The notes below the pieces were generated by a model. That model made no database searches. It saw only the letters and a list, made by a program, of their open reading frames with translations, and was not told the DNA's origin. A stretch of DNA of 64,000 bases from assembly GCF_011045215.1 (NCBI RefSeq), contig NZ_CP049201.1. One strand, given 5' to 3'. Position 1 is the stretch's first letter. Each line of letters starts with the position of its first letter. Positions 17,528 to 39,596 of the stretch are shown piece by piece. Made by a program: the position numbers and the translations under genes. The DNA is from Escherichia coli. Lineage in GTDB: Bacteria; Pseudomonadota; Gammaproteobacteria; Enterobacterales; Enterobacteriaceae.

Positions 17528-17603
<76 letters not shown>

Positions 17604-17730: not shown

Positions 17731-17742
17731 CTTTCTTCCCGA

Positions 17743-18652: not shown

Positions 18653-18843
18653 TTACTTTTGACTGGTTTGTTTTGCGAGCATTATGTGTGTTGTTAACGG
18701 TACCCTAGCTAAGTGAGAGTTCCAAAATAAAACCCGCAGTTTTTACGCTGCGGGTTTTATTGTTTCTGTCGATGGGATAGGGTGCCACTTCGGCCAGCCT
18801 TGGCAACCGATTGACGGGGGATTACTCCCCCGTCGCGGTTTCC

Positions 18844-19165: not shown

Positions 19166-19174
19166 TTCTGCTCG

Positions 19175-19435: not shown

Positions 19436-19678
19436 AGCAACCTCCCTTTAGGTGGTGCTATTCTAAATTTCATCAATGCAGATTCCAACTCCTTCCCACT
19501 TTAAGCGAAGGATGGTGATAAAGTCAGAAGATGTTAGATGAAATCTAAACGGGCGATAAGTTTTCCAATATTTGAATAACAACGTGGCAGGATTTTTGTT
19601 TATCAATTATCTTACACTTTTAAGTGTAATAAATTTGTTAGTGATGACAATATTGTGAGAGGAGATTATCAATTGAAG

Positions 19679-21077: not shown

Positions 21078-21272
21078 AAAAGGAAACGCAAAGAAAAATA
21101 AAAGAGAAAAGAAAACGTAGCAGAAAACAATGCTTAAACTAACACATCTAATGCTTTAATTTGCTTTACTGTTACAATGTCCGCTTACTGGTACAGGGCG
21201 GACTGCCATATTAGATTTGGTTCTATCTCGTAAGAGTGGCCGTTCAGGTCTGCACTAATACATCTGAATGGT

Positions 21273-22382: not shown

Positions 22383-22539
22383 CTGTTCCCTCCCTGTGCG
22401 GCATGGTCGCATGTGCGTGCGGAGGGGGTTACTGCTTTTTGTTGTCGCCGGGTCGGGAGAACGGCGCAGGGGTGAGATTACGCGCGTGGTGGGTGATGAT
22501 TGTTGCCGAATCATTTAACGGATACAAGGGGCTGAAGCT

Positions 22540-23724: not shown

Positions 23725-24236
23725 TGGCTGTGCCAAAACATCTTCGCTTTTTTACGCTGTTTGTGGATGGTGAAAACGAAGTGGGTAAGGTGACGTCCGT
23801 CACTCTGCCTAAGCTGACGCGCAAAACCGACAGCTACCGGGGTGGCGGCATGATGGGTGCGGTAAGTATTGATCTCGGTCTGGACGACTCCGCGCTTGAT
23901 GCGAGCTTTGTCATGGGGGGCGCAGTTCGTGAGCTGTTCCTTAAGTATGGCGGCACGATTGACGGCACGCTGCTGCGTTTTGCGGGTGAATACTACACCG
24001 ATGCAGAAAGCGACCTGTATGAAGTCGAAATGCGCGGACGTGTGACGGAAATTGATATGGGGGAAGCCAAACAGGGCGAAGCCACATCACACACTTACGC
24101 CATTAAAAACACCTACTACAAGCTGAGTGTTAACGATCGCCCGTTGTGGGAGATTGACCTGCTGAACTTCATTTACCGGAAGGACGGCAAGGACATTGTG
24201 CCCGATCGCATCCGTTCCGCGCTTGGGCTTGGCTGA
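23724..24236 (+). CDS. tail tube protein (P2 FII-like)
   Basis: 170 aa; SVTLPKLTRK...YRGGGM...LGLDD pattern as in P2 FII; directly follows FI. Confidence 0.85.
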   Translation: MAVPKHLRFFTLFVDGENEVGKVTSVTLPKLTRKTDSYRGGGMMGAVSIDLGLDDSALDASFVMGGAVRELFLKYGGTIDGTLLRFAGEYYTDAESDLYEVEMRGRVTEIDMGEAKQGEATSHTYAIKNTYYKLSVNDRPLWEIDLLNFIYRKDGKDIVPDRIRSALGLG

Positions 24237-24290
24237 TAAGTAATATGCAGGCGGCGCAGTGCGTCGCCTCTGACTGAAAGGAGTTTCCTG

Positions 24291-24656
24291 ATGAAAGAGA
24301 CGAAAAACATCGATACCGAAAACACGGTAGTTACTGACACTGTGAAAGAAACCAGTGAGCGTGGCGTAAAACTTACCCAACCAATTGAGCGAGGCGGCGA
24401 AAAAATCACGTATGTGGAGATCACCGGGGCTATTGAGCAGGCTGGATCTCTGCGAGATTTGTCGCTGTCTGATGTGCTGAATCTGAAAGCGGAATCCATG
24501 TTTACGCTGCTGTCACGCGTGACATCACCGCGACTGGATGAAGTGACGATCAAAAAAATGGCATCCCGTGACTTTATTCAGTTATGTGTGGTTGCCGTAA
24601 ATTTTTTGAGCGGTGCGGACTCTGGCGGGAAGAACGAACAGGCGACGGAAGCCTGA
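24291..24656 (+). CDS. tail assembly chaperone (P2 gpE-like)
   Basis: 121-aa ORF between tube and tape-measure genes; contains the slippery site for E' frameshifting. Confidence 0.75.
   Translation: MKETKNIDTENTVVTDTVKETSERGVKLTQPIERGGEKITYVEITGAIEQAGSLRDLSLSDVLNLKAESMFTLLSRVTSPRLDEVTIKKMASRDFIQLCVVAVNFLSGADSGGKNEQATEA
24602..24608 (+). other. predicted -1 programmed ribosomal frameshift site (TTTTTTG) producing E+E' fusion
   Basis: T6G heptamer inside gpE-like ORF; the -1 frame (ORF 24584..24820) extends to the start of the tape-measure gene, as in P2 E/E'. Confidence 0.6.
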
Positions 24657-24770
24657 TCACGGTTGTGTGCTTTGAGCACATAGAAGACTTTGTGGCGGAT
24701 ATTGCCGCCATTTTTAACTGGTCGCCCGCCGAAATCTTCATGATGACGCCCGGCGAAGTGGTTAGCTGGC

Positions 24771-27614
24771 GTGAGCGGGCGGCACTTCGCAGCGGGAATG
24801 CAGACAATGAAGACTCTTGATATCCGGGTCGCTTTCAGCGCCGTTGACAGGCTGACCCGGCCTGCCGAAAACGCCCGCCGCCTGATGGGGCAGTTTGGTG
24901 ACTCCATCCAGCGAACGCAGGGGGCGATCAAAAATCTCGAGCGTCAGGCGCGTTCATTTGAGCGCGCCCGTGACGCTGTCAGTAAAGCGGATGCTGGCAT
25001 ATTGAAAGCACGACGCCAGCTTAACGCCCTTAATCAGTTACAACGCACGGGTACAGTGCTCAGCGAAAAACAACAAAAGCTGATGCAGCAGTTAAGCACC
25101 CGGCTTGAACGCCTGAATGAATCGCGCACACGTGAAATTCAGAAAATGCGGGAGCTTGGCGGAGAGCTGAAACGCCACGGCATTTCCCTGACAGGCAGCG
25201 ATAACACCATCCAGCAGGCCATCAGACGCACCGAACAGTACAACAACCAGCTTGAACGCGAACGGCAGGCGCTTGCGCGTGTAACGCGGGCGCGTGAGCG
25301 GTATTCGCGCGCGCAGGAAACCGCGGGAAAACTGAAAACAGGTGGTGCGCTGGCAATTGGTGCGGCAGCGGCTGGCGGCTATGCTGCCGGGCGTTTTTTG
25401 CAGCCTGCGATCGGGTTCGGCAAAGAGATGTCCCGCGTTCAGGCACTGACGCGAATCGACAAAAACAGCCCGCAGTTTAAGGCGCTGCGTGAGCAGGCGT
25501 TAAAACTTGGCTCTGAAACACAGTTTACTGCGAGTGATGCCGCCAGTGGGCAGAGCTTTCTGGCAATGGCTGGTTTTACTCCGCAGTCCATTCAGGCCGC
25601 ATTGCCCGGTGTTCTTAATATGGCGCTGGCAGGTGGCGTCGAACTCGGCGAGACGGCTGATATAGGCTCCAATATCCTCACACAGTTCAACCTGACAGCC
25701 GATCAAATGGGCCGTGTTGGCGATACGCTGACAGCAGCATTCACCCGGACCAATACTGATTTACGCGCGCTGGGCGAAACCATGAAGTATACCGGTCCGG
25801 TTGCCGCAAAACTTGGTATCAGTCTTGAAGAAGCGGCAGCCATGGCCGGGATGCTTGCCAATAATGGTCTTCGTGGAAGCGATGCTGGTACGGCCATTCG
25901 CGCAAGTCTGTCCCGCCTTGCATCACCGCCAAAAGCTGCGGCTGATGCGCTGAAAGAGCTGGGGGTGTCAGTTGCTGACGCCAGAGGCAAAATGCGCCCG
26001 ATGGAGGATGTGCAGCTTGATCTCTACAAGGCGACACAAAAATACGCACAGGTGGACCAGGTTTCCTTCTTCAAGGACATCGCCGGAGAAGAGGCGTTCG
26101 TTGGTTTGCAGACGCTTGTTGCGGCGTCTGGTTCAGGAGAGCTGCAAAAACTGACCAGAGAATTGCAGGGGGCAAGGGGAGAGGCCGATCGCGTTGCAAA
26201 AGTAATGGCCGATAATCTTGATGGGGACCTGAAAAATCTCGACAGCGCATGGGAAGGTCTTCGTATTCGCATCAGTGATCTGGTTGACGGTCCGCTGCGT
26301 TCTGTCACGCAGTGGCTCACGCGGGGGCTTGAAAAAATCACCTCGCTGGCGCAGGCCCATCCGGTACTGACGCGCCAGCTACTGATAGCAGGCGGTGCGT
26401 TGCTGGCAATGACTGTAACGATTGGCTCGTTGTCGCTGGTTATTGGGGGGCTTTACGGGAAGCTGGCTACCTTGCGTCTTGGTTTTGACATTCTTACCCG
26501 GTCAATGAATGTCGTCAGGGTGTTGCCTGCGCTGTGGGGAATGGTGACGGGTTCCGTTTCTTTACTGGGAGGCGCTATCGGGGCGCTGTTCAGTCCGGTT
26601 GGTCTTATCGTGGCTGCGCTTGCCGGAGCTGCCGTTCTTATCTGGAAATACTGGGATCCCATCAGGGCATTTTTTGCAGGGGTGTTCAGCGGGATTATGG
26701 AAAGGCTGACCCCGTTGCGCGAAACCTTTGAACGGTTTGGTCCTGTTTTTGACGCAATCGGAAGCGGGATCAGCCAGGTGTTTAACTGGTTTAAATTGCT
26801 GCTGTCACCGATGGAGTCCAGCAAGGAAACGCTGGATAAATGCACCAGTGCTGGCGAGGTATTCGGTAACGTTCTTGGTGGCGCGTTACAGCTTGTTCTG
26901 ACGCCTGCAAAAATGCTGCTGGATACGCTGGCGTGGATACTTGAAAAACTCGGTGTGCTTCCGGATGAGGCGGAAAGGGCGCGTAAGAAAATCGAAGACG
27001 CACAGCGTGCGGCCATTCTTCAGGACAAGGTTGCCTTGCTTCAGGGGGATCTGGCGAAAATCAATCCGCCGAAGCCTGTGGAAAATGGCAATGGCACCGG
27101 AGGTGATAAACCCAAAGACAACAAACCGCTCACAGACAGCAATACCGGGACGCTACGCAGACTCAGCAAAATTGCTGATAACACAGGTAAGCTGGTTGAT
27201 GAGACGAAAAAACGCATTGGCCCCGGCGATATTGTCTTTAAGAACCTGCCCCGCGCACTTGCTGTTCGTGGGGAGTGGCAGGAGCGGAAGATTGCGCAGG
27301 TCAGTAAGCCTGCCCCCGCAATTAATATCACACCTGTGGTCCCGGCTCCGCTGCCTCCGACGCTGGTCCCTGTTGTTGCGGCCAGCTCCCGCCCGGTGGC
27401 GGAGTCCATACGATCTCCAGTGGCATCAGTTCCTGCAACTTCCCGTAACCGGGAGCCTGTTGCCTCCGGATTTGGCGGTGAAATTCATGTTCATCTGCAT
27501 AACGTTGTTACGCAGAATCCCCGCGAACTGGCGAAACTGGTCGGCGAAATGGTCAGTGCAGAAATGGAACGGCGCGCCCGTGCCAGGCGTGGCAGTTTTT
27601 ACGATAAAGATTGA
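24771..27614 (+). CDS. tail tape-measure protein (P2 gpT-like)
   Basis: 947-aa ORF, coiled-coil N-terminus, Gly/Ala-rich hydrophobic central segments; position after E/E'. Confidence 0.9.
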   Translation: MSGRHFAAGMQTMKTLDIRVAFSAVDRLTRPAENARRLMGQFGDSIQRTQGAIKNLERQARSFERARDAVSKADAGILKARRQLNALNQLQRTGTVLSEKQQKLMQQLSTRLERLNESRTREIQKMRELGGELKRHGISLTGSDNTIQQAIRRTEQYNNQLERERQALARVTRARERYSRAQETAGKLKTGGALAIGAAAAGGYAAGRFLQPAIGFGKEMSRVQALTRIDKNSPQFKALREQALKLGSETQFTASDAASGQSFLAMAGFTPQSIQAALPGVLNMALAGGVELGETADIGSNILTQFNLTADQMGRVGDTLTAAFTRTNTDLRALGETMKYTGPVAAKLGISLEEAAAMAGMLANNGLRGSDAGTAIRASLSRLASPPKAAADALKELGVSVADARGKMRPMEDVQLDLYKATQKYAQVDQVSFFKDIAGEEAFVGLQTLVAASGSGELQKLTRELQGARGEADRVAKVMADNLDGDLKNLDSAWEGLRIRISDLVDGPLRSVTQWLTRGLEKITSLAQAHPVLTRQLLIAGGALLAMTVTIGSLSLVIGGLYGKLATLRLGFDILTRSMNVVRVLPALWGMVTGSVSLLGGAIGALFSPVGLIVAALAGAAVLIWKYWDPIRAFFAGVFSGIMERLTPLRETFERFGPVFDAIGSGISQVFNWFKLLLSPMESSKETLDKCTSAGEVFGNVLGGALQLVLTPAKMLLDTLAWILEKLGVLPDEAERARKKIEDAQRAAILQDKVALLQGDLAKINPPKPVENGNGTGGDKPKDNKPLTDSNTGTLRRLSKIADNTGKLVDETKKRIGPGDIVFKNLPRALAVRGEWQERKIAQVSKPAPAINITPVVPAPLPPTLVPVVAASSRPVAESIRSPVASVPATSRNREPVASGFGGEIHVHLHNVVTQNPRELAKLVGEMVSAEMERRARARRGSFYDKD

Positions 27615-27620
27615 GGAGTC

Positions 27621-28115
27621 ATGGCCATGATGATGATCTATGGCATGTTTGTTTTTGAGCTGCGCACACTGCCACATCAGCAGTTACAGCAAAACAAAAG
27701 CTGGCGGCATGTGAAAAATGAACGCGTTAACCGTTCAGCAAGCTGGCAGTATATCGGTGCAGGTGATGATCGCATCGTTCTTTCCGGCGTGCTTTATCCT
27801 GAAATTACAGGTGGTGAAGTGTCGCTGTCGCTGCTGACCACGCAGGCATATACAGGGCGGCCCTGGCCTCTGATTGATGGTGTCGGGCAGATTTACGGCA
27901 TGTATGTCCTGACCGGAACGAATACGACCCGCTCCGAGTTTGATCGCTACGGTAAGGCGAAAAAAATAGAATTTTCACTGACCCTTGAACGCTGTGATGA
28001 GGATTTGCGGGAGCGCCTGCAATCCTCATCGTTCAGCGATATGCTGTCCGGCTTCAAAGATAAGGTGACATCATCCCTTAACAGCGCGGCCAGTTCAGTT
28101 AAAGGACTGTTCTGA
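27621..28115 (+). CDS. tail protein (P2 gpU-like)
   Basis: 164-aa ORF directly after tape-measure gene; MMIYGMFVFELRTLPHQQLQ... P2 U-like. Confidence 0.8.
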   Translation: MAMMMIYGMFVFELRTLPHQQLQQNKSWRHVKNERVNRSASWQYIGAGDDRIVLSGVLYPEITGGEVSLSLLTTQAYTGRPWPLIDGVGQIYGMYVLTGTNTTRSEFDRYGKAKKIEFSLTLERCDEDLRERLQSSSFSDMLSGFKDKVTSSLNSAASSVKGLF

Positions 28116-28211
28116 TTTTACATTGCCGCCGATACCCTCATATTGGGTAATGGGCGGCTTGTTGTTATATAATATATCGTAGGTCCTGATAAAACTGTTG
28201 AGGTTTCTACT

Positions 28212-29450
28212 TTATAAAGAATTGCTACTTTCTAATTCTGGGTTTCTGGATCTATTTTTACAACCTAAATCCGAGTGGTAATTCGGTATATCGTTTGTCA
28301 AATCTTGTTTGATAGCATTAATTAAGATCATTATGTCGAATTTATGCATATCGTCGCCCCCTTCAGACCTTAGATGTTCGGATGTGGTGAGTTGAGTCGC
28401 TAATTTGCTGTTTGGCCCCCACACAATATTGTTTTCGAATTTTCCTTCATGCATTCTGTTATTATATATACAGTATTGTCTAATGTTTAATCCACTGGCT
28501 AAATGTACAATAGCAGTATCTACAGTTATAACAAAATCAGCATGGCGAACCAATGCAAATGAACATCCGGCATCAGAAAATGGAGATAGAGACACATTAT
28601 CCAATCCATTGTGATTAATCTGTTCTCCCATATTAAAAACTATTGTGTGATATCCCTTAAGGTTATTAAGGTAAGCTAGTACTTTGTTTATCTGTTCATC
28701 AGATAATGTTCTGCTATTCTGAGAACCATAAGGGTTAAATATAACTAATTTTTTGTTTTTCTTCCTGAATTCATTTGCAACAATATTTGCTGGTTCATAT
28801 ATTTTGTTGTCAAAATTAAGCGCTGCAGCATAATTATTATTTTTTATCTTTAGTAAAGATAAAACTTTTTTCATTCTTTCAGATGTGTGAATGGAACGAT
28901 TATCGATTATATTTGTATCAAAAATAGTTACGGCAGGATGATTAAAACAGATAGAGTGTTTAGGTCTAAGTAAATGTAGTGTTTGCAATCTGGTTATCGC
29001 TGTGTTATCAAAATTTGAGAAGTCAACAACAAGATCTACATTCAGTTTTTTTATCTTTGCTTTTAGTTCGTTAAATTTATTTTTCTCGTAAGATATAAAG
29101 GCATCCACGCCAACAATATCAGTAAAGAGGAATGATACTCTTGAAGGTGCTATCACATATACCACCATACCGGATTTTTGAAGTTGTTTAATAAACCCTG
29201 AGGTAACGATGCCGTCACCAATGGCTTGCATGTGCATGAAAATGCACACTGTTTTATAACTATCCGGCTGTAATGATGTTTTCCTTCTGTATCGCATTTT
29301 TAGAAATGCCAGTCTGGCCTTCGTCTTTATCTTTTTTGTTTTAATATTTCGCTCTCTGTTAAGCTGTTTTAATGATGAAATAACATTCATAATGGTACCC
29401 TGAAAATCCAAATCACACATGTCATCCGAAATGAGCAGGATACTATACAA
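28212..29450 (-). CDS. glycosyltransferase family 9 (LPS heptosyltransferase-like) cargo gene
   Basis: 412-aa ORF, very AT-rich; N-terminal ...MQAIGDGIVTSGFIKQL and C-terminal ...FVITVDTAIVHLASGLN resemble the GT9 motifs of WaaC/WaaF-type enzymes; start may be internal. Confidence 0.6.
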   Translation of the reverse strand: MYSILLISDDMCDLDFQGTIMNVISSLKQLNRERNIKTKKIKTKARLAFLKMRYRRKTSLQPDSYKTVCIFMHMQAIGDGIVTSGFIKQLQKSGMVVYVIAPSRVSFLFTDIVGVDAFISYEKNKFNELKAKIKKLNVDLVVDFSNFDNTAITRLQTLHLLRPKHSICFNHPAVTIFDTNIIDNRSIHTSERMKKVLSLLKIKNNNYAAALNFDNKIYEPANIVANEFRKKNKKLVIFNPYGSQNSRTLSDEQINKVLAYLNNLKGYHTIVFNMGEQINHNGLDNVSLSPFSDAGCSFALVRHADFVITVDTAIVHLASGLNIRQYCIYNNRMHEGKFENNIVWGPNSKLATQLTTSEHLRSEGGDDMHKFDIMILINAIKQDLTNDIPNYHSDLGCKNRSRNPELESSNSL

Positions 29451-29484
29451 AAAACTGGACTACAATGGTTTGAAATGAAAGCCT

Positions 29485-30084
29485 TTATGCTTGTTTACTC
29501 CTTGATTCCACTGGGGAAGCAGGCCACTCAATATCCGGTGCTCTTGATGTATCAACACGGTTCAGCAGCACTCGATACTTCTTCCATGCCACCAGTAACG
29601 ATGTTTCTTCCTCTGTTGCAATATTCAAATCTACGGCATCTTGAAGTGGCGAAATATGCTCACTGGCTACCTGCATGAGGCTGTTTTTTGTTTCTTCCGC
29701 CTCCCGTATCCGGAACACTTTTTCTGCTTCTGCATCTTTCACCCACGTTGTGCCGTTCCACTTCTGAAACTCCCCTTCCGGGGATAACCAGGTGACATTT
29801 TCCGGTAATGGACCGAGTTCAGAAATAAATAACGCGCCCCCTGATGCCACGTCATAAACCGTTTTACCACGATGATCTTCAACGAGATGCCAGGACGTCT
29901 TATCACTGTTGAAAATAGCCACGAAGCCAGCTGGAATATCTGGCGGAGAAATATCAGTACTATTTGCAGGTAGACCTGTATGAGGTGGAATGTATGCATC
30001 ACCTTCACCAATAAATTCATTGGTTCCGACCAGCAGATTATAAATTTTTATGGTTCGTGGTTGTTCACTCATTCTGAATGCCAT
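29485..30084 (-). CDS. tail fibre assembly chaperone (Tfa / P2 G-like)
   Basis: 199-aa ORF immediately downstream of the tail-fibre fragment; Tfa-like C-terminus (...[22 protein letters not shown]). Confidence 0.8.
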
Positions 30085-31259
30085 TATGCAAGCCTCACAA
30101 TATAGTTAAATGCGATGTTTTTTACGGTGTTTTCCGCGTTGCCATAAGCGGCAATGGTAATGGTGTGTGTGTGCGAACCAATAGCGAGCGTATGTGTATG
30201 CGCACCTATTGCTACTGTGTGAGTATGAGCTCCTGCGCTTAATACGCGATTACTTGCTGTCTTGCTTGTGTTAGTTGCATGCATTCCACCACCGGTACCG
30301 GGAGTTTCTGCGTATGCTGAAGTATTGTTGTAAGCAAAGTTGTGTGTATGTGCTCCGGTGTTATTTGTGGATTTAGTTCCGTAATCAAACGACGATGTGG
30401 TTTTCGTCCCCAAATCCGTACTGGATGCGCTGGCGCTGTGGGTGTGCGATTTAATGCCGTCCTGTTCCTGAGACAATACGGCTCGACCACTGGCTGGTTT
30501 GCCCTTAATCGTCCAGCCACGCATATCAGGGATCACGCCTGACGGATAAGCGGCTGCAAGTTTCGGGTATGCAGATTTGTCAAAAGTCTGCCCCTGCATC
30601 AGGGCATAACCAGACGGAACGGTATCTGATGGCCACGGGATTGGTGCGCCAGGCGGATAAAACTGCTCTGATGGCGTATAGAGTGAATAAACTGTACCGT
30701 CCGTTAACCCTTCCGGCTTATTAGCAGAATATGCTGGTGACGTATGAATCGTCACGCTGGCATTACTGGTATAATCCCATTGAATATTTACACCAGTCGC
30801 ATAATTTCCGATTGCAACGTAAATATCGTAAGTATCACCAGATGTATTGACCCAGGCAAAATTTGTAAACCCTGTCGATGTGCGCTGCCATAAAGCACCA
30901 GTAATCCCCTTCGGATTACCATTACCTGCACGCAAAACAAGTTCAGATATACCTGCCTGTTGAGGTGAACCGACGTTATATCCAGCCCCACCAATCAACG
31001 TAATTGAAACAACAGAACTCGCCTGCGGCATGGTTACCGTTGCTAATTTGAACCAACCAGCACCACCGCTAAATGACATAGTTGTTGAGTTAAGCGTACC
31101 AATATCTTTCGGTGTCAGTGTTATATCCGCTGAAAGCGCCTTACCATTCACCTTACGGGCAGAAGGTACGGTCTGGCAAGAGCCGCCCGGCAAACGTCCT
31201 GGCATCAGTCTGCGCTTTACTTTAAGCGCAATGTATTGCTCGGTTGCTACATCCCGCAC
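30084..31259 (-). pseudogene. tail fibre protein, C-terminal portion only (N-terminus deleted)
   Basis: 391-aa ORF with HTHT/His-x-His repeats ([24 protein letters not shown]) typical of fibre tips; reading frame runs into the portal fragment junction at ~31236-31259. Confidence 0.7.
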
Positions 31260-32030
31260 CCGCTGCTTTCCCGGCAGGATTTCTCGGCGCTGGCGCTGGA
31301 CTGGTTTGTGTTCGGTAACGCATTCCTTGAGCTTCGGAGCAATATGCTCGGCGAACCACTTAAATTACGGCACGCACTGGCGAAATACATGCGACGCGGA
31401 AGCGATCTTGAATCATGGTGGTATGTGCAGGATGGCAAGGACGCGTTTCAGTTTCGCCCTGGCAAAGTGTGCCACCTGATGAATCCGGACATTAACCAGG
31501 AAATTTACGGCATGCCGGAATATCTTGGAGCATTACTCTCGGCCAGCCTGTCTCATTCGGCGGACATGTTCAGAAAACTGTATTACGACAACGGATCCCA
31601 CGCCGGGTGCATCATCTACATCGGTGCAGCGCAGGTAAACCGCGAAAGCATGGACTCCCTGAAAGAAACGTTACAGGGTGCGCGTGGTGGTGGTGCGTTT
31701 AAAAACGTGCTCATCCACGCGCCCAACGGGGGCAAAGAGGGGGTGCAAATTTTGCCGTTCCAGCAGATCACCGCAAAGGATGAGTTCATGAATGTTAAGG
31801 CGGCATCCCGTGATGATGTGCTGGCTGCGCACCGCGTTCCGCCGCAACTGATGGGGGCGATGCCGGGCGAAAAAAGTGCGTTTGGTGATGTGGAGAAGGC
31901 CGCGCGGGTTTACGCAATTAACGAGCTGATGCCCGTCATGGAGGCTATGAAGCACATCAATGACTGGCTTGGCGAAGAGGTGATCCGCTTTAACCCTTAC
32001 GCACTGCTGGACACCCAGCCCACATCCTGA
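31236..32030 (+). pseudogene. portal protein fragment (P2 gpQ-like, C-terminal part)
   Basis: 264-aa ORF divergent from the tail-fibre fragment; portal-like sequence (…IYGMPEYLGALLSASLSHSADMFRKLYYDNGSHAG…); shorter than P2 Q (recalled ~344 aa); P,O,N,M,L and baseplate genes absent. Confidence 0.6.
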
Positions 32031-32560
32031 CGCGCTTCGCTTGTCTGCTGCTTCGCCGGGGCATAAAAAATTTATGCCCCGACTCTCCAGCTCCTGTATC
32101 AATCAGATAATTTCACGACGTCTTCCAGCTTATTGCCATCATCGACGGTCAGGCTCTTACGCAATCCCATCGCGCTGACTGCATGTTCTCGCCGCCTCAG
32201 TGCGATTTTGACGGCCTTATCTGCCACCCCATCAAATCAAAAGCCCTCACGTCTTTTTCACGCTCAGCGTGAGAAATACAGCCATTCTGTTGTGTTGCTG
32301 CGACATCGTTCAGGGGATGCTATTTATCCCCTGAAACGCGGGCTGTTCCCCCGTCACCTGCGCGCAGAAAAAACGCGTTTTTTTGTGCACGCACGGATCC
32401 TTGACGGATCCAGCCGCCACGGGGGCCGGAAGGGCAAAAAGTCGTTCAAAAAAATTGTGCAAATTTGTGCACTATCGTGCAGTGTGCATCGTGCTGTTTT
32501 CTGCGCAAAAAACGGATGGTAAATTTGTTCGTAGCAGGGAAATTTTAATGAGCGCAAGAC

Positions 32561-33091
32561 ATGAAGAAAGATTCATATCCTTATTTGATTTGCATGACTG
32601 TTTCAGTGCTAGGGATTATTTTCCTCTTTTACTGGTGGAGGGCAGATATCTACAGGATTACATATCTTAATTCGCGTATATCCAATTATTACATCTTGTG
32701 TAGTATGGGTATGTCCTTTTTCTTCTCCTTGTTTCTGGTGAAGAGGGGGGTAGTGAAGCAAAGTGGCTGGAAAGGACTGTCGGAATACCTGAAGGTTTAT
32801 GCTGGCTCTTGCATTCTTACAGGGATATTCCTGATTATTCCTCTTATGATGGTGACTTATTTTTTACCAGGAGTAACATCATCATATGTTGCACCGTATG
32901 AGTATACATCTGGTAGTTCAAGAAGCTGTTCCGGAGCGTTTGTTGATGATCCCGAACTGCATAAAAATATTCTTATTTGCTATCCGTATGGTAACTATGA
33001 ATATGACAATATTATCTATGTTGAAAAGAAAACTAATGCATTGGGCGTTGTTGTGACGTATGCACAGACTGCACGAGACGATGCTGAATAA
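32561..33091 (+). CDS. integral membrane protein of unknown function (hotspot cargo)
   Basis: 176 aa, about 3-4 hydrophobic helices then a soluble tail; AT-rich; preceded by TGTGCA-type repeats at 32455..32494. Confidence 0.55.
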   Translation: MKKDSYPYLICMTVSVLGIIFLFYWWRADIYRITYLNSRISNYYILCSMGMSFFFSLFLVKRGVVKQSGWKGLSEYLKVYAGSCILTGIFLIIPLMMVTYFLPGVTSSYVAPYEYTSGSSRSCSGAFVDDPELHKNILICYPYGNYEYDNIIYVEKKTNALGVVVTYAQTARDDAE

Positions 33092-33282
33092 GATACTACA
33101 GATATAGTCCACTTTTTTGTTTATTTGTCGGGATAAAAACAAATTACCCCGACTCACCATGTATTAATCTTCCGCTTTAAGTTAGTATTTTAGCTGCGCT
33201 GTCCTGCTATTCAGCAAAGCGGCGTACTTTAATGCGTCCTGTGCTTTCTGGAATTTAAGTGCATAGTCAGTGGCGATTTTTT

Positions 33283-33564
33283 CTAGTTCAGCGATTCGGT
33301 TGTTTTTGGTTTCCAGCCAATCAAGTAGCGCCAATACTTCAGGATCCCGACATCCAACACTGTTACGCGTGATTTTTCATAATGTTCGTCGGCAAGAGTT
33401 CGGCCAATTTTGAAATCTCCATCATCACCATAACCGGAGCAGGCATAAACAACCTGTGCTCCAGATATTCGCTGAATTGACATTTCCTCGCCGCAAATAG
33501 GGCATTTCGGTACTGGCACAGGTGAATAACGTTCACGTAATGCCTGATAGTTGATTTCGCTCAT
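33283..33564 (-). CDS. small zinc-ribbon protein (possibly frameshifted)
   Basis: MSEINYQALRERYSPVPVPKCPICGEEM...YACSGYGDD; an alternative frame downstream (to ~33182) reads as a coherent helical tail (DPEVLALLDWLETKNNRIAELEKIATDYALKFQKAQDALKY). Confidence 0.45.
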   Translation of the reverse strand: MSEINYQALRERYSPVPVPKCPICGEEMSIQRISGAQVVYACSGYGDDGDFKIGRTLADEHYEKSRVTVLDVGILKYWRYLIGWKPKTTESLN

Positions 33565-33627
33565 TAAGTCGTTCTCCTTGTTTATGTTCTGAGGTGGAGA
33601 GCAGGGCGAACTCGCCCTGATGTTGTG

Positions 33628-33929
33628 TTATTCAGGAAATAACGCCCGGATATTTCCGGCCATCTGACTGGTTATCTGTGCGGTTGATACTGGCTGTGAT
33701 GCGGGGCGTTCTGTCCTGGTTTGTGTCACTGATAACGCTTCATCATCAGCCCATGCAGCTAGTCGGTAAGCCTCTGCCGGATTCATTTTCAGAAGTGCCA
33801 GCCCGGCCAGAAAAGCCACACGTTGGCCGCTTTTGCGGGCTTCTGGTGTAAGGCTGTCCAGCCAGGCGCATGCTTCGCCTTCGTTCTTGACGGCGGCGGG
33901 CTTCAGATAGAAACTTATCCGTCTGGTTG
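33628..33929 (-). CDS. ParR/StbB-like partition adaptor protein
   Basis: From MTTPTRRISFYLKPAA...LDSLTPEARKSGQRVAFLAGLALL...NIRALFPE; resembles plasmid R1 ParR (RRTIAFKLNP...LDSIPQGERSRLNRAALTAGLAL...LRSLFPKE) from memory; lies directly downstream of the parM-like gene. Confidence 0.65.
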
Positions 33930-33943
33930 GTGTCGTCATTGGT

Positions 33944-34893
33944 TTACTCCTTGTCCATTGCGTACAGCCCATTAACCAGAGCAAACTGTGGCACCCCGTC
34001 CGCGATGAAAGTCGCATTAACTCCGCAGGCTTCGCGGATAGCGGGTGCCACAATCTCCGCCCCGCCACCGACAACCATCACCCGCCCGTAACCCGAAAAA
34101 ACCGCCAGCGCGCGGATCACGCGTTGTTTCAGTGTTTCTTCCTTTTCACGAATAACCGCCATCAGGCTGGCGTAATGCGCGTCATTGTGGATGTGTTGGC
34201 GCAACCAGGCTTCATCATGGCGATGTTCGATAATGGTATTGGCGATGTGGTGACTGGTACGCATACCGTTAGCGGCCATCACCGACAGCACGGCACCGGC
34301 CATCAGGGAGACGCCTACGTGTGGATCGCAAAACACCTGGCTGATACCTGCCAGTTGCCCCTGAACCTTTGCCACATCCAGCGTGGTTCCGCCTAAATCC
34401 ACAATCAGCAGGGATTCAAACGGACTCATGTCAGCCAGTGCTTTAAAGCCAGCCGGAATGGATTCAGGCATAACCCGCACGTTACGGATAGTGAATGCTT
34501 CGCCGTTCTGGTACTCCACCGGGCGCATAACGTTCGCTTTTTTGCGGTTGATGTTGGCCATGTCCGGCTGTGCGTTTGTGTCGAAATACTCGCTCAGTGG
34601 CAGGGTGACAACCACATCCACCTCCTGTGGCGTGATGCCTGATTTGACCAGCGTGTGATGAATGGCGATTACATTCACATCGCTGTACTGGTATTGCGTG
34701 TCGGTCGTCTGGACAAAGCGATCGCTGACCGGATCAAAACCATAGCGCACGCCATCAAGCATGTAGTTCGCGGGCTGCATGCCACCGAACGGCGCAGATC
34801 ATTCCGACTTGAAGCTGTTCGGGCTGATGGCGTTGCGGCGTTCGCCATTCTCAGTCCATGCCAGCTTGATGTTGGTGGAGCCGTCGTCGATAC
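33944..34893 (-). pseudogene. ParM/StbA-like actin-type ATPase with in-frame TGA nonsense codon
   Basis: MKICIDDGSTNIKLAWTENGERRNAISPNSFKSE-TGA(34799-34801)-SAPFGGMQPANY...; remainder matches ParM (VMPESIPAGF, IVDLGGTTLD, VMVVGGGAE); the stop replaces the Trp of R1 ParM KREWAVSFG. Confidence 0.75.
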
Positions 34894-34932
34894 AAATTTT
34901 CATGTCGCTTTTCCTTATGTTGATTAATTAAT

Positions 34933-35044
34933 CGTTTACGGGATTCTGAAATCCCGTTTTTGCCTGTTTTGTGTGCGCTTCATATATCGCGGCGCGTTTT
35001 TTGCTCATTTACGGGATTTGTGAATCCCGTTTCTGTCTGTTTTT
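34933..35044. repeat. two ~36-bp direct repeats, each with an internal dyad (acgggatt..aatcccgt), upstream of the parM-like gene
   Basis: tttacgggattctgaaatcccgtttttgcctgtttt (34933..34968) and tttacgggatttgtgaatcccgtttctgtctgtttt (35008..35044); candidate parC-like centromere/operator, or a remnant of a replication origin near the end of gene A. Confidence 0.5.
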
Positions 35045-36533
35045 TGTTTCCACTGGTCAGGCCACCCCGCAGCAGGTCTGCTTTGCGGCGGGCACGTTCA
35101 GTGGTTTCACTGATTCTCTGTGCGTGCTCTGCGTCGCGGATGGCGCGCAGCATGTCAGAAAGCACGGTAACGGGGGTTTTCATGGTGTTCTGGTCCTGCT
35201 GAAGTGTGGATGCCAGACGTGCGGCGGCTTCGAGGTCTGATGCCCCCAGCTGTTCCAGATAGCTGGCGACCGGGTTATGGCGGATCTCCGTGCTGCTTAC
35301 GCCGTGATTACGGCTCAGGCGCTGCCAGAGCTGCGTGATTCGGCTGTCCGGGCGGGTATCCGGTTTGCGTACAATTTCAAATCCCTGCGGTGCAATGATG
35401 CTGCCGTCAACGTACAGGCTGCCGCCCCGTAACAGGTGCTGCATCTGCTGTTCACCGATATGCATGCCGAGAGATTCGGCAGATTCCCGCCATTCTTTAG
35501 CGAGTAATTCGTGGTTATCAGGCAAAGGCCGCTGCTGTTTGCGGCTCTGTGTCCAGCTCTGCATTTCATCACTGCTGTTTTTTGCCTGTTTGTCACGCAG
35601 CGAACGCATCAGCGCCCGGCGTTCGTGCCGTTTCAGTGAGCGCACCCATTCATCCACATCAACGCCGTCAGGAAGCTGCGGCCACGGTGCTGGCCGTTCT
35701 TCCGGCTGTTCTGTCCCGTTGTTGTCCGTTTCCTGTACACGGGGACAGTTATTGCCACGAGTCCAAGGGGCGGCAGGGCCGCTCTGAAGGTCAAAACCAT
35801 TTTCGCGGGAGCTGTCTTCCGCTTCCGGTTTGCGTCTTACCAGCTTCCAGTTATCCGGATGCGTGCATACGCGGGAAGACTCCCCGATGAGCGGCGACCA
35901 GATCCCGTAAATCTGTACACTCTGCTCACCGTAATCGTTCAGTTCATCTGCGAGGTCGTAGGCGGTGCGAATCAGGTAGTCTTTGCGTGGAACAAGCACG
36001 CCACCCTGTTTTTCAATGTAGGTGGCAAAACACCCGGCATCAGCGGCAGCGAGTACCGCATCCATTGCGTCATCCTTCAGCCGTTGCGGGCCTTCCGGGT
36101 TGCGTGCCATCTGGCTGGCAAGGCGGCGCAGTTCACGCCACACCTGACGGGAGGGGATACCAAAGAACTGGAACTGGCGGACCCGGTGAAGGCGCGCCCA
36201 GCCGATGGCGCGTTCCACGCTCTCGGCCATTGATTTTCCGGTTTCGTGGTCAACGCGTGGCTTGCCCGTTTTCGGGTCGATGCCATCCACGGCGCGGCTG
36301 TCCAGGTTCTTTCCGATGTAGGTGGCGATGTAGCTGGTTGGCGTGCCTTTTGAGCCGTCGACGTACTCCGCCTTAAAACGCGGAGTTATGTCATCGCCCA
36401 GCTCGTGGCGGTCTTCCTGAATGGCAATATCGCAGACGTGGGACACGATGGTTTCAATCTCGTCCGGATGTGCAAAGACCATCATATGCCAGTGCACAGT
36501 GCCGTCATGGTGAGGCTCCAGCGGTGTATTCAC
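34980..36533 (-). pseudogene. replication initiation endonuclease gpA-like, N-terminally truncated
   Basis: 517-aa ORF begins within the region matching P2 A (LEPHHDGTVHWHMMVF vs P2 VEPHHDGTPHWHMMVF as recalled); the N-terminal part of a full-length A protein plus cox/B equivalents are missing. Confidence 0.7.
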
Positions 36534-36686
36534 TCAGCGAGGCACACCCGCCAGCAGTGTGATGCGCCAGCATTGCCGCAAATACGGAGGCCGGGGAGTC
36601 GTAATACGCCAGCAGTGATTCGCCATGCGGTGTCAGGCAGCGCAACGCCAGCCCGTGTGGTGTTAAGTCCACGCGGTAGCAGTCGT

Positions 36687-36836
36687 CTACTGTGAAATAA
36701 AGGGTGAGCGTTGTTCTTTAGCTGCCATTTCATCAATGACGGCTCGCTCTTCGAGGGACAGCCGAAGTGCCAGTCTTGGACCTGTGGCGGTGTTACGCGG
36801 AATGCGTGATCTGGTATCGTGAAGAACTTGTTTCAT
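36687..36836 (-). CDS. small ribbon-helix-helix-like ORF (49 aa), uncertain
   Basis: Manual translation MKQVLHDTRSRIPRNTATGPRLALRLSLEERAVIDEMAAKEQRSPFISQ: beta-strand/helix pattern of RHH proteins; lies between A fragment and the divergent repressor gene. Confidence 0.3.
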   Translation of the reverse strand: MKQVLHDTRSRIPRNTATGPRLALRLSLEERAVIDEMAAKEQRSPFISQ

Positions 36837-36911
36837 AGTGGTATATTGTGATCATCTAATAGCTCATGAAATCATTTTGGTATCAAAAAAGATACCTGTC
36901 AAGGTTTTTGT

Positions 36912-37316
36912 ATGAAAAATGATATTGGTCAGCGGTTGCGTGAGGAAAGGGAAAGATTGGGGCTTAGTCAAGTTGCTATGAGCGACATTGGTGGAGTCAA
37001 AAAGCTAACTCAGCTTAGATATGAGAAAGGAGATAGCTTTCCTGATGCTGCGTATTTGGCAGCGCTGTCTCGTTTTGGCCTTGATGTTCAGTATGTTGTG
37101 TTGGGAATTCACTCACCTGAAACTTATAACGATGATGAGCAGGAGTTGATTACTCGCTTTCGAGCAGCTTCGTTAGATGTAAAAAACGCGGTGATCGGGG
37201 CTTTAAAAGGTGCGGGCAGTGAAAAGGAAACTCAGCCATCAGGGCGTGAGTTAAATATTTCTGGTGGTAATAACCGTATCGCTGGTCGTGACTATAACGA
37301 AACTAAGGGTAGGTGA
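36912..37316 (+). CDS. XRE-family HTH repressor (P2 C-like immunity repressor) with C-terminal tail
   Basis: IGQRLREERERLGLSQVAMSDIGGVKKLTQLRYEKGDSFPDAAYLAALSRFGLD HTH; divergent from A, co-directional with int as for P2 C; C-terminal ...SGGNNRIAGRDYNE motif repeated in the next protein. Confidence 0.7.
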   Translation: MKNDIGQRLREERERLGLSQVAMSDIGGVKKLTQLRYEKGDSFPDAAYLAALSRFGLDVQYVVLGIHSPETYNDDEQELITRFRAASLDVKNAVIGALKGAGSEKETQPSGRELNISGGNNRIAGRDYNETKGR

Positions 37317-37331
37317 TAGTAGGGAGGTGAC

Positions 37332-37982
37332 ATGGCCGTCAACTCAAACGGTTCAAACAATCGCGTTGCTGGGCGTGATTTTCACGAAAAGAATATTCAG
37401 ATAGAGCGATATGATGGTTCTCATACCGTCAATATCGCAATCCCTTCGAATAATGATGATGACGCTCGCCCTTTGCTTAAGGCACAGCGTAAGGAGCTAA
37501 ATAGCTTGGTTGCTGCTATTGCAGAAGCTAGCAATACTGAAGCGTTTATTATTTGGCAAAAAGTACATGCGGAGATTGGTGTAGCTGGTATTGATGATAT
37601 GACAATAAATCAATATAAAACAGCGGAGAGTTTTCTGCATGCAATGCTTGAGCGATGTAAAGATCATGATGCCTGTAAGACTCTTGTAAGTTTATTACTA
37701 CGTAACAGTGAAGACTGTGGACTTCGACAAAAACTTCTGCGGTATTGCCATATCAATTTCGGTACAGGACGTTTAAACGATCTTACTCGTTCTCAGTTAC
37801 AGTCTGCATTGTCGTGGTTAGAGCAACAATCGGTATCAAGCCACTCAGAGAATTCGACCTTACCAGAAGTTCGCCTTCGTGCTTCAGAATTAATCCGATT
37901 TTATCCAAAAGAAATAATATTCTTTATCTGCGTAGGGGTTTTGGTAGGCGGAGCCATTTCTAGGATGTTTTTTAATTTGTAA
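37332..37982 (+). CDS. tail-anchored membrane protein of unknown function (lysogeny-operon cargo)
   Basis: 216 aa; N-terminal SNGSNNRVAGRDFHE repeat shared with the upstream repressor; single C-terminal TM helix (IIFFICVGVLVGGAISRMFF); strong SD (GGAGGTGA) after three consecutive in-frame stops. Confidence 0.6.
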   Translation: MAVNSNGSNNRVAGRDFHEKNIQIERYDGSHTVNIAIPSNNDDDARPLLKAQRKELNSLVAAIAEASNTEAFIIWQKVHAEIGVAGIDDMTINQYKTAESFLHAMLERCKDHDACKTLVSLLLRNSEDCGLRQKLLRYCHINFGTGRLNDLTRSQLQSALSWLEQQSVSSHSENSTLPEVRLRASELIRFYPKEIIFFICVGVLVGGAISRMFFNL

Positions 37983-38011
37983 TCTTACTTGAGCTAAATT
38001 GAGGCAATGAC

Positions 38012-38359
38012 ATGAAAGTAAAAAAGGTTCAACTATTAGTTGCTTTTTTATCTATGTTTTCTTTTTCCGCCGTCGCAATGCCTTTTAAAACTATTGAACG
38101 TGAGAGTTTCAATGGAGTATGGCCATTTAATACAGATGAGGTTCAATTGCAGTGTCTTGATGGTAATCCTTATGTGATGAATTTTGACGATAATAAGTTA
38201 TATGCGCTTACAGGTTTGGCTCGAATAAAAGGTAAAACATTTGGTGCGTTACCGTTAGATAACAATAATCCATTTTGGCTAGATAATGATGCCGCCCCAG
38301 GGTTAAAAAAGAATCTGGGGGACGTCACTAAGGCTGCATTTGATTTATGTGATAAGTAA
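38012..38359 (+). CDS. YebY-like (DUF2511) secreted/periplasmic protein
   Basis: 115 aa; signal peptide MKVKKVQLLVAFLSMFSFSAVA; ...WPFNTDEVQLQC... and C-terminal ...LC resemble E. coli YebY as recalled. Confidence 0.55.
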   Translation: MKVKKVQLLVAFLSMFSFSAVAMPFKTIERESFNGVWPFNTDEVQLQCLDGNPYVMNFDDNKLYALTGLARIKGKTFGALPLDNNNPFWLDNDAAPGLKKNLGDVTKAAFDLCDK

Positions 38360-38364
38360 CAAAA

Positions 38365-39366
38365 ATGTCGGTTCGTAAAACTCCATCAGGTAAATGGCTT
38401 TGCGAATGTTATCCCTACGGAGCATCGGGAAAACGCATTCGTAAACAGTTTGCGACAAAAAGTGAGGCGCTCTCTTATGAGCGCCGTTTAATGAATAGTA
38501 GAGTTGGAGACGAGTTTCAAGATGGTTCTGGTCCTCGTCTTTCTGAGTTGATTGCTCGTTGGTTTGAGATGTACGGAAAAACCTTGTCCTCTGGTGCAGA
38601 GCGCAAAGTCAAACTTGAGGCGATTTGTTCTAGGCTGGGAGATCCATTTGCTTCTCAGTTTGACAAAAATATGTTTGCTACTTATCGGGAAAGAAGGCTA
38701 TCAGGAGAATGGAATCCCAAGGGGAAGAAAAAACTTAGTGAAGCAACCGTTAATCGCGAGCAGTCATATCTACATGCTGTTTTTGCCGAACTGAAGCGCC
38801 TTGGGGAGTGGTCTGGTGAAAACCCCCTGACTGGAATTCGCAAGTTTCGTGAGGAAGAAAAGGAGCTGGCGTTTCTGTATGTAGATGAGATTGAACGCCT
38901 TTTGATTGCGTGTGATGATTCACGGAATAAAGATTTGGGGGTTGTTGTCCGTATTGGGCTTGCGACTGGTGCTCGGTGGAGTGAAGCAGAAGGATTAAAG
39001 CAATCTCAAGTACTGCCCGGTCGAATCACATTTGTTAAAACTAAAGGAAAGAAGAACCGCACTGTACCGATTTCACCTCAATTGCAGGCTATGCTTCCTA
39101 AAAAACGAGGAGCGCTATTTTCACCATGTTATGAGGCTTTTGACGCTGCAATTAAGAGAGCGAAGATAGAGCTCCCTGATGGGCAATTAACTCATGTGCT
39201 ACGTCACACGTTTGCTAGTCATTTTATGATGCGGGGCGGAAATATTCTTGTGTTGCAAAAAATACTGGGGCATAGCGATATAAAAATGACTATGCGTTAT
39301 GCGCATTTTGCTCCGGGTCATTTAGAGGCTGCTGTTGAATTAAACCCTTTTGACAATAGAGGGTAA
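38365..39366 (+). CDS. int: phage tyrosine integrase
   Basis: 333 aa; C-terminal catalytic region HVLRHTFASHFMMRGGNILVLQKILGHSDIKMTMRYAHF (R...HxxR...Y); ~110 bp from attR. Confidence 0.9.
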   Translation: MSVRKTPSGKWLCECYPYGASGKRIRKQFATKSEALSYERRLMNSRVGDEFQDGSGPRLSELIARWFEMYGKTLSSGAERKVKLEAICSRLGDPFASQFDKNMFATYRERRLSGEWNPKGKKKLSEATVNREQSYLHAVFAELKRLGEWSGENPLTGIRKFREEEKELAFLYVDEIERLLIACDDSRNKDLGVVVRIGLATGARWSEAEGLKQSQVLPGRITFVKTKGKKNRTVPISPQLQAMLPKKRGALFSPCYEAFDAAIKRAKIELPDGQLTHVLRHTFASHFMMRGGNILVLQKILGHSDIKMTMRYAHFAPGHLEAAVELNPFDNRG

Positions 39367-39472: not shown

Positions 39473-39596
39473 TTTAAAATCCCTCGGCGTTCGCGCTGTG
39501 CGGGTTCAAGTCCCGCTCCGGGTACCATGGGAAAGATAAGAATAAAATCAAAGCAATAAGCAGTGTCGTGAAACCACCTTCGGGTGGTTTTTTTGT
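39473..39596 (+). repeat. attR: second copy of the 124-bp repeat (partial leuZ 3' end 39473..39527 plus downstream terminator)
   Basis: Identical to 17775..17898. Confidence 0.85.

Follow-up and report, generated by a model that had tools for sequence, protein, structure and literature searches.

The repressor-integrase block and its matched termini

The window analysed here is a stretch of 64,000 nucleotides (64 kb) of the Escherichia coli chromosome that contains a P2/186-like prophage remnant, and this report concerns the lysogeny region of that remnant, in which two further genes lie between those for the repressor and the integrase. The first of these encodes a 216-amino-acid (aa) membrane protein, hereafter called the partner, whose N-terminus resembles the C-terminus of the repressor. 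The genes of the block and their relevant parts are as follows (HTH, helix-turn-helix; SD, Shine-Dalgarno; E, E-value; pLDDT, predicted local distance difference test).

36912-37316, + strand: XRE-type HTH repressor, 134 aa (Pfam HTH_31/HTH_3; repressor families phrog_8, phrog_4, and phrog_3)
37251-37301, + strand: tail motif of the repressor, L114-E130, LNISGGNNRIAGRDYNE
37332-37982, + strand: Flk_N-domain tail-anchored protein (the partner), 216 aa (phrog_5825, E 2e-101; SD GGAGG 6 nt before the ATG)
37338-37388, + strand: head motif of the partner, V3-E19, VNSNGSNNRVAGRDFHE; disordered in the monomer model (pLDDT about 55)
37464-37847, + strand: predicted helical cytoplasmic domain of the partner, residues 45-172 (about 60 model residues superpose on small three-helix bundles)
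37905-37976, + strand: predicted C-terminal transmembrane (TM) tail anchor of the partner, residues 192-215 (AlphaFold2 helix)
38012-38359, + strand: YebY/DUF2511-like periplasmic protein, 115 aa (Pfam DUF2511; phrog_2950, E 2e-39)
38365-39366, + strand: tyrosine integrase, 333 aa (phrog_1, E 5e-77)

The original prediction, made from the letters of the window, had placed two extra same-strand genes between repressor and integrase (int), and all open reading frames (ORFs) were recovered accordingly; the integrases of homologous loci carry Int_N and Phage_integrase domains. The junction between repressor and partner genes reads GGT AGG TGA TAG TAG GGAGGTGAC ATG, i.e., three stop codons, an SD sequence, and a start codon, just as it had been described. 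Between the four genes, no + strand terminator-like site was found in the site scan; hence a single operon fits, and the lysogenic promoter probably drives transcription of the whole set of four.

From its N-terminus, the repressor has an HTH part (residues ~1-65) and a conserved helix (~74-101), after which come a linker predicted to be disordered, the tail motif, and a basic end (KGR), its secondary structure being taken from an AlphaFold2 fusion model (see below). Its C-terminus reads ...LNISGGNNRIAGRDYNETKGR, and the partner begins with MAVNSNGSNNRVAGRDFHEK. This repeat had served the original prediction only as a sign that both genes are translated; it is the most informative feature of the locus. 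Over the 11 shared codons, NNR(I/V)AGRD(Y/F)(N/H)E, 24 of 33 bases are identical and synonymous differences occur in 5 of the 7 shared residues, which agrees with the earlier description of a repeat kept at the protein level with diverged codons. The pattern [AS]GRD[YF] occurs in only two ORFs of the window, those of the repressor and the partner, and the cognate tail/head alignment scores 8 standard deviations (sd) above shuffled heads, so that the repeat is far beyond chance.

The motif is 17-24 residues long and G/N/V/I-rich (N+G+Q+V+I 57%, K+P+L 6%), and the repressor copy is followed by the basic end. In the enterobacterial alignment, it is the best-conserved part of the disordered region of the partner, with the columns S5, G7, N10, R11, G14, R15, D16, and E19 invariant at 57-77% overall identity. 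The HTH parts of the cognate repressors are very diverse, which indicates several immunity types, and a C-terminal helix (DE.ELI..FR.APLAVKAAALAALTAG) is conserved together with the tail; the cognate enterobacterial repressors all end in ...[IV]N[VI]SG..NR[VI]AGRD[YF].E.KK.

Relatives of the partner were surveyed at 87 loci, i.e., in E. coli, Klebsiella, and Erwinia genomes and on 80 IMG/VR contigs. A tail-bearing repressor is encoded immediately upstream of the partner gene in 86 of these 87 Flk_N-seeded loci, and the partner gene starts 9-22 nt after the repressor gene or overlaps it by 4 nt. The single exception is an Erwinia locus (L009) with a yebY gene between repressor and partner, where the tail motif is found on the repressor one gene further up. 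As it is constant and directly follows the repressor gene in 86/87 loci, the 216-aa gene belongs with the repressor and is not swappable cargo. The distant short forms of the partner sit in Mu/BcepMu-like transposable prophages of Pseudomonas, Ralstonia, and Serratia (hosts from source names; prophages recognised by rve transposase, an HTH_IclR Ner-like gene, holin, SLT genes, Mu Gp27, and DUF2730), and each one examined has an HTH repressor of about 140 aa immediately upstream. Prophages of Enterobacterales, Pseudomonas, and Ralstonia share the repressor-partner pairing, be they P2-like or Mu-like. Of 50,697 records of phage genomes, only one predicted-prophage entry (two accessions) and three Ralstonia phage records contained relatives. 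In Ralstonia phage YO077_2 (L181), the Flk_N-like gene and the repressor gene are convergent and the motifs still match; the genes lie at 1399-1977 and 2258-2935 with a small zinc-ribbon/TM-like ORF between them, and the Flk_N-like ORF is seemingly devoid of a C-terminal hydrophobic segment.

The partner is not always an Flk_N protein. At five loci (L123, L161, L170, L175, and L178) it has 120-220 aa and consists essentially of motif, linker, and TM segment, so that motif and membrane anchor are the common denominator of the partners. In Serratia (L098, 3501-4484), in Ralstonia (P0216), and in other relatives of 260-330 aa, an internal TM segment is followed by 75-140 residues predicted to be extracytoplasmic; a mid-protein TM segment with an extracytoplasmic part suggests the architecture of a transmembrane sensor.

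The motif varies in sequence by lineage, yet it is matched within every pair. For seven lineages, the cognate scores summed to 360, a value reached by 3 of 5040 permutations (mean 226) and 0 of 1854 derangements. A second survey was seeded from the repressor with its tail removed, and thus not from the partner, and gave 33 lineage representatives. Their cognate sum was 1235 versus 726 (sd 45) when permuted, and 0 of 200000 permutations reached it. At least 35 was scored with the next ORF by 21 of the 33, and three more matched at another start or ORF. Repressor relatives devoid of the tail (L165, L171, L173, and L174) have no motif-bearing neighbour. Matched termini from individual loci are given below, repressor tail first and partner head second.

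L094: SQTFNAPISGGEFAARDIVNH; TQEFNNQIHDGQFAGRDIVNN
L095: VVKGDVLGNVIKGNVTI; TVNGDVGNVVSGDVTI
L091: QQFNGPVGTVTTGDVVN; QQFHGAVEQVAAGDIKN
L096: QVFHQAPIGDIFGRDLV; QEFSGPVGDVAGRDII
L097: QVFHGKVGQSIAGNV; QVFREDVGQAVAGDL
L175, a very different motif that is still matched: KVRTVRGDMVQRDKIV; KVRDVHGDYVERDKFV
A further pair: GDVLGNVIKGNVTI; GDVGNVVSGDVTI

Three other origins of the match were considered. Tracking of the host as the cause of the co-variation is weakened by Serratia, which carries both an AGRD type (P0027, P0041) and a GDVGNV type (L098); the motif hence appears to track the module and not the host genus. Expression of repressor and partner as one fusion by read-through or frameshifting was rejected given the three stops in the window and the lack of a conserved frame relation: one frame is shared by both ORFs in the window, L003, L006, and L062, the spacer measures 11 or 13 nt in L057 and L084, and in other lineages the ORFs overlap by 4 nt. 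Ongoing gene conversion or a repeat at the DNA level was rejected as well, with the 24/33 identical bases of the window and with distant pairs sharing about half of their residues.

The partner protein and the accessory slot

Profile and structure searches showed that the partner is not an orphan. The protein is the prototype of phrog_5825, which PHROG lists with function unknown. Precomputed annotation places the Flk_N domain (PF27202) on P0001, which is 96% identical to the partner, and on almost all homologues, and the NCBIfam Flk model NF007987 aligns to residues 38-168 (E 6e-15) with 55.3 bits, which misses the equivalog cut-off of 353 bits. Its structural model matches Flk in a Foldseek search of AFDB50, and BLASTP gave 22-31% identity to Flk. 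The Pfam-A release used for the profile search yielded no family for the protein, Flk_N being present only in the newer precomputed annotation. In the AlphaFold2 monomer model (mean pLDDT 85), residues 1-44 are disordered and are followed by a confidently modelled helical domain (45-172), a short linker, and a C-terminal helix (192-215). Short homologues have their hydropathy maximum 16-19 residues from the C-terminus. This helix and the hydropathy back the C-terminal anchor originally proposed, and the protein is modelled as a cytoplasmic body anchored in the inner membrane by its C-terminus.

A profile search of 1.84 billion representatives returned only 137 relatives of the partner. Nearly all short ones combine a hydrophobic C-terminus with an N-terminal motif that is rich in G/N/V and varies in sequence, and the long ones are chromosomal Flk proteins devoid of that motif. 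To the chromosomal Flk P0217 (332 aa), the phage protein aligns first over residues 11-165 and then over residues 148-219, so that the module seems to be partly duplicated in tandem within Flk; two-stretch matches were also obtained for many long relatives. The phage form is very common in Klebsiella pneumoniae (P0085 on 754 contigs; 1158 blocks of the encoding-contig index), a non-motile and non-flagellate species. Being shorter, free of the duplicated module, different at the N-terminus, and abundant in K. pneumoniae, the phage form is not Flk. The two have a homologous Flk_N helical domain and the tail-anchored topology in common. In contrast to the phage form, Flk has 320-420 aa, a P/Q-rich N-terminus, two tandem copies of the module, a long linker, and no matched motif, and it is chromosomal, flagellum-specific, and not encoded beside a repressor. 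Flk (Fluke) itself is a cytoplasmic protein with a tail anchor, and it holds the flagellar export apparatus in its early mode, possibly via FlhA_C (PMC13344023).

The second extra gene behaves differently. The 115-aa protein matches Pfam DUF2511 (PF10709) over residues 28-113 (E 1.7e-5) and the YebY structure 7N0J (E 0.0067), with the disulfide cysteines C48 and C113 aligned, and begins with MKVKKVQLLVAFLSMFSFSAVA, of which residues ~1-22 (...SAVA|MP) are predicted as a signal peptide; the earlier YebY/DUF2511 call and the secreted topology are thereby corroborated. It shares the DUF2511 domain, the signal peptide, and both cysteines with YebY of the E. coli AZY operon and with MlbQ. Unlike YebY, to which it is only distantly related, it is encoded outside the yobA-yebZ-yebY copper operon and has the Flk_N gene and the integrase gene as neighbours. 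Such non-AZY contexts have been described, with yebY homologues flanked in Enterobacteriaceae by genes for a XerD-like recombinase and a phage CI repressor, and MlbQ, a lantibiotic-binding self-resistance protein, is among the DUF2511 relatives (Hadley et al. 2021). By analogy with MlbQ and with Glo of phage K139 (see below), the YebY-like product may be a periplasmic binder that protects the lysogen through exclusion or through resistance to peptides or bacteriocins.

The slot that separates the partner gene from int is filled by members of at least nine unrelated gene families or is empty. The contents of this slot include YebY-like proteins, BRCT+WYL proteins (288-295 aa), a phrog_3989 protein (291-298 aa), a three-gene set, a 244-aa membrane protein, and lipoprotein-like proteins. 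As the gene between the 216-aa gene and int is variable, the YebY-like gene is regarded as cargo in a hotspot, and its product appears to be a small secreted disulfide-bonded protein in a cargo slot. Both extra genes lie between repressor and int on the same strand, and variable content was found only for the gene next to int. The survey of genes between repressor and int that had been suggested thus uncovered variable cargo in the case of the YebY-like gene and constancy in the case of the 216-aa gene, and the three genes do not form one module as had been assumed, the third being exchangeable and the second fixed to the repressor. The broader idea that genes of the lysogenic operon are accessory functions expressed in the lysogen still appears to hold.

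The layout is also less unusual than the label non-canonical, given to it in the original prediction, would imply. The whole 2.7-kb block is present at a coverage of at least 80% in 505 of 5426 complete E. coli genomes (about 9%), and the arrangement has precedents. In the Vibrio phage K139 (Peduoviridae), cI-orf2-glo-int is transcribed from PL, and Glo is annotated as periplasmic and connected with phage exclusion. A hotspot between cI and int has been reported for K139-like, P2-related vibriophages (Rousset et al. 2022), and, according to a 2026 preprint, the region between integrase and primase holds 8% of P2 defence systems. In outline, both the accessory slot and the setting of yebY are already known. 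The likeness to K139 is that accessory genes on the lysogenic strand separate repressor and integrase and that one of these genes encodes a periplasmic protein (Glo); homology of the extra proteins to those of K139 was looked for and rejected, both for Glo versus the YebY-like protein and for orf2 versus the 216-aa protein. The K139 orf2 family is phrog_3989, which is also found in the slot of enterobacterial relatives, and BRCT proteins recur next to int (L082, 4551-5447; L010, i.e., K139, 2194-3099; L074, 4648-5535). Both BRCT families (phrog_3989; BRCT+WYL) weakly match PDC-S48, a candidate system in PADLOC, and PADLOC recognised no other defence protein among the slot contents of the 87 loci. 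In a Mu-like Pseudomonas prophage (L091, 4490-5362), a 290-aa TIR_2 protein is encoded two genes after the repressor-partner pair and is likely defence cargo in the equivalent slot.

Interpretation of the repressor-partner pair

The arrangement is best read as two separate things, namely a two-protein immunity unit, in which a membrane partner would bind the tail of the repressor, and a variable moron slot that here holds the YebY-like gene; to this reading we assign a probability of about one half. The motifs of repressor tail and partner head would pair with each other, and the partner would thereby hold part of the repressor pool at the inner membrane. Such titration could set the threshold of the lysis-lysogeny switch or couple the switch to a membrane signal. 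The target would be a small repressor without a large oligomerisation domain, and the partner would act like chromosomal Flk, i.e., as a tail-anchored protein that keeps a cytoplasmic target in one state. Sequestration or titration is favoured because every partner is a membrane-tethered copy of the repressor tail and because the studied relative of Flk_N is a membrane-tethered inhibitor. We infer a physical link between repressor and membrane protein via the motifs, together with binding, its direction, and its consequence, from the pattern of matched termini. Pairs in which a dedicated partner controls the availability of a transcription factor are represented by 186 CI/Tum, P22 C2/Ant, and the membrane anti-sigma factors, the last of which are co-transcribed with their targets. 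The known antirepressors are soluble, come from separately regulated promoters, and are not co-translated with the repressor, and we know of no antirepressor that recognises its target via a copy of the target's own terminal motif.

Several points weigh against sequestration by the partner. The binding of repressor and partner is itself inferred, and co-transcription with int is assumed from the layout. When repressor and partner were modelled by AlphaFold2 as one chain joined by a (GGGGS)8 linker, with 26 paired rows in the alignment, both motifs were disordered (pLDDT about 30) and the predicted template modelling score (pTM) was 0.31; the monomer model of the 216-aa protein leaves the N-terminal motif undocked as well. 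For about five repressor lineages with a tail, no partner was detected within the DNA examined. With the partner co-expressed, constitutive sequestration would seem counter-productive as long as the repressor is not in excess. Since the prophage is defective, the module may not do its original job in this strain. Lastly, the ratio of non-synonymous to synonymous substitution rates (dN/dS) of the 216-aa gene is 0.57-0.78 among E. coli relatives of 97-98% identity (L039, L044, and L020), values that derive from only 4-6 synonymous and 10-12 non-synonymous changes; the three neighbours of the gene have 0.04-0.17 in the close E. coli comparison. This could reflect relaxed or diversifying selection, or small-number noise. 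At depth (L052), dN/dS is 0.04 for the repressor and 0.15 for the 216-aa partner. Among close relatives, it is 0.07-0.10 for the YebY-like gene and 0.04 for int, and the values for the repressor range from 0.04 to 0.17. In favour of the reading, all four genes are under purifying selection at depth.

The main alternative mechanism is a putative amyloid-like (cross-beta) signalling pair, in which the matched terminal motifs template one another as in HET-S/NWD2 or Bab/Agp. We consider this unlikely. In a first variant, clustering of the membrane protein would convert and inactivate the repressor and so lead to SOS-independent induction; in a second, loss or oligomerisation of the repressor would release or nucleate polymerisation of the membrane protein, with membrane damage as the outcome (abortive infection or addiction). 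The known pairs include Bab/Agp (BASS11), an amyloid-motif pair from prophage defence islands of E. coli, as well as BASS1-10 of filamentous bacteria and the fungal HET-S/NWD2, and their motifs are expected to span about 20-25 residues, enriched in N/G/Q/V/I and depleted in K/P/L (Dyrka et al.). Amyloid-like templating takes its place as the main alternative because the signature, length, and composition found here fit these published criteria: the same short motif stands at the C-terminus of one protein and the N-terminus of the protein next door, which is the signature used to find such motifs, its 17-24 residues show the composition bias reported for BASS motifs, and one member of the pair is directed to the membrane. 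In addition, the motifs co-vary in pairs, the globular domain of the partner is exchangeable while motif and TM segment stay, charged residues flank the motif, and Bab/Agp provides a prophage-borne precedent in E. coli. The pair differs from these systems in combining an HTH repressor, in place of a Bell/HeLo executioner, with an Flk_N/TM protein, in having no sensor of the nucleotide-binding NLR or STAND type or with tetratricopeptide repeats (TPR), and in its inverted polarity, the N-terminal motif being borne by the membrane protein. AlphaFold2 predicts no beta structure for either motif, and constitutive co-expression in a stable lysogen would have to avoid spontaneous templating. A bolder form of the proposal, in which the matched motifs would be a self-recognising beta-zipper or amyloid-like element that links a membrane protein (in some cases with a periplasmic domain) to the master repressor, and that would be spread widely among the P2-like and Mu-like prophages of Proteobacteria and work there as a previously unknown, SOS-independent switch or kill on a membrane or envelope signal, is held to be slightly less probable still.

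A superinfection-exclusion or abortive-infection cassette like lambda rexA-rexB, which the original prediction had put forward as a hypothesis, formed by the 216-aa and 115-aa genes with or without the repressor and with the motif being incidental, is more doubtful than the amyloid variants. The genes are placed in the lysogenic operon and encode one membrane and one periplasmic protein, Glo of K139 is periplasmic, stands in the same position, and takes part in exclusion, and defence-like cargo occupies the slot elsewhere (TIR_2 in L091; BRCT proteins with their weak PDC-S48 matches). Against this, no PADLOC defence model matches the 216-aa or the 115-aa protein, the four proteins of the block yielding only generic HTH matches, and homology of the extra proteins to RexA/RexB or to other known abortive-infection proteins was absent in PADLOC, Pfam, and NCBIfam. 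The two genes do not travel together, the YebY-like gene being replaced or absent where the Flk_N gene stays, and an invariant motif that co-varies with the repressor tail is needless for a free-standing exclusion protein.

Marginally lower is our estimate for the motif as a shared tag read by a third factor (a protease, an adaptor, or a Tum-type antirepressor), in which case repressor and membrane protein would not bind each other and would be co-regulated or be rivals for that factor. The two motifs are located in disordered termini, a usual setting for degrons and short linear motifs, the absence of mutual docking in the AlphaFold2 models agrees with a tag, and related prophages encode a weak match to the Pfam family 'Derepression' (PF25738). 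A conserved host factor is, however, hard to reconcile with a motif that varies greatly between modules within one host order and even within one genus (Serratia), and a phage-encoded factor would have to co-vary too, of which none was seen conserved across P2-like and Mu-like contexts. The third-factor tag and free-standing exclusion are both rated as less likely, and so is a role as a prophage copy of Flk that modulates the flagellar type III export switch (motility, susceptibility to flagellotropic phages), which has the Flk_N homology, the shared topology, and the name 'flagella biosynthesis regulator' of some homologues in its favour and is nonetheless very improbable with 55 bits against a cut-off of 353 bits, an N-terminal motif that Flk does not have, an abundance of the phage form in K. 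pneumoniae, and no reason offered for the strict linkage to the repressor.

Returning to the repressor-partner module with co-varying matched termini, it appears to be new. No literature on the pair was found in searches for the RefSeq accessions, for Flk with prophage and repressor, for DUF2511 with prophage, and for membrane-anchored antirepressors, probably because isolated phage genomes almost lack the pair. The lysis-lysogeny switches of P2/186-like and Mu-like phages are textbook systems, yet this second component is invisible in the model phages, and the pair is common in genomes (about 9% of complete E. coli, hundreds of Klebsiella contigs, and also Pseudomonas, Ralstonia, and Serratia). 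If the sequestration reading is true, a membrane-tethered partner that sets the availability of the repressor would be a new layer of control over prophage maintenance and induction, and Flk_N would gain its first functional context outside flagella. The motif pairs constitute a natural set of apparently orthogonal matched pairs, and the slot beside int forms a compact hotspot with clear limits, whose cargo is predicted to be expressed in the lysogen (YebY-like, BRCT/WYL, TIR, and lipoprotein genes).

The prophage remnant and its control region

The element is a defective P2/186-like (Peduoviridae) prophage remnant of about 21.6 kb, which is bracketed by exact 124-nt direct repeats and has further features to the left of the repressor gene:

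17775-17898: left copy of the 124-nt direct repeat (3' 55 nt of tRNA-Leu(taa) and 69 nt downstream)
36687-36836, - strand: truncated Arc-like ORF, first gene of the lytic-side operon (phrog_3431, E 3e-16)
36874-36902, - strand: promoter-like site of the divergent (lytic) transcript (consensus scan, TTGACA-17-CAAAAT)
36879-36896: candidate operator, inverted repeat GGTATC-N6-GATACC, in the spacer of the - strand promoter-like site
39473-39596, + strand: right copy of the 124-nt direct repeat (attR side), identical to 17775-17898

For the repressor, no + strand promoter was found at the threshold of the consensus scan; its likely place is further left, facing the lytic promoter, as is the case in P2 and 186. 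Related repeats were found besides GGTATC-N6-GATACC, and within 36833-36896 the direct repeats TCATAGTGGTAT and TCATTTTGGTAT, 39 nt apart, are further candidate operators.

The window holds the tRNA genes glyW-cysT-leuZ at 17528-17829, and to the right of the prophage yecA (39723) is followed by tyrP (40450). The 69-nt downstream part of the 124-nt repeat takes in the terminator of the tRNA operon, and the segment of identity is unusually long for an attachment (att) core. In the remnant proper (17899-36700), genes for sheath, tape-measure, tail-fibre, and tail-fibre-assembly proteins were identified in scrambled orientation, a gpD-like tail gene and the tail-fibre genes being on the strand opposite to the sheath, tube, and tape-measure genes, and no head genes were seen among the scanned ORFs. 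Of the 855 positions in the gpA profile, the replication gene covers 357-855 only. Compared with an intact relative of 99.6% identity (NZ_AP022207, locus L002), to which similarity begins at window position 36698, parts of the early region and of gpA are missing from the window prophage, with the breakpoint at about 36698; across relatives, similarity to the window starts at 36698-36701. The Arc-like ORF was cut by this deletion at about 36698 and retains 49 aa, compared with 68 aa in Escherichia phage 520873 (NC_049344). All four lysogeny-side ORFs are intact despite the state of the remnant, and the lysogeny operon is its sole intact portion.

At 36685-36836, the RefSeq annotation (Prokaryotic Genome Annotation Pipeline, PGAP) calls a 45-aa ORF on the + strand and the phage record an Arc-like repressor on the - strand; the latter is favoured because of the PHROG match (E 3e-16). 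The four-gene block is AT-rich, with a GC content of 37-46%, and the adjoining replication region one of 57-61%. Beside the truncated gpA, a ParM/StbA-like partition protein (phrog_691, E 1e-73) is encoded on the - strand at 33944-34780, which is unusual inside an integrated P2-type remnant.

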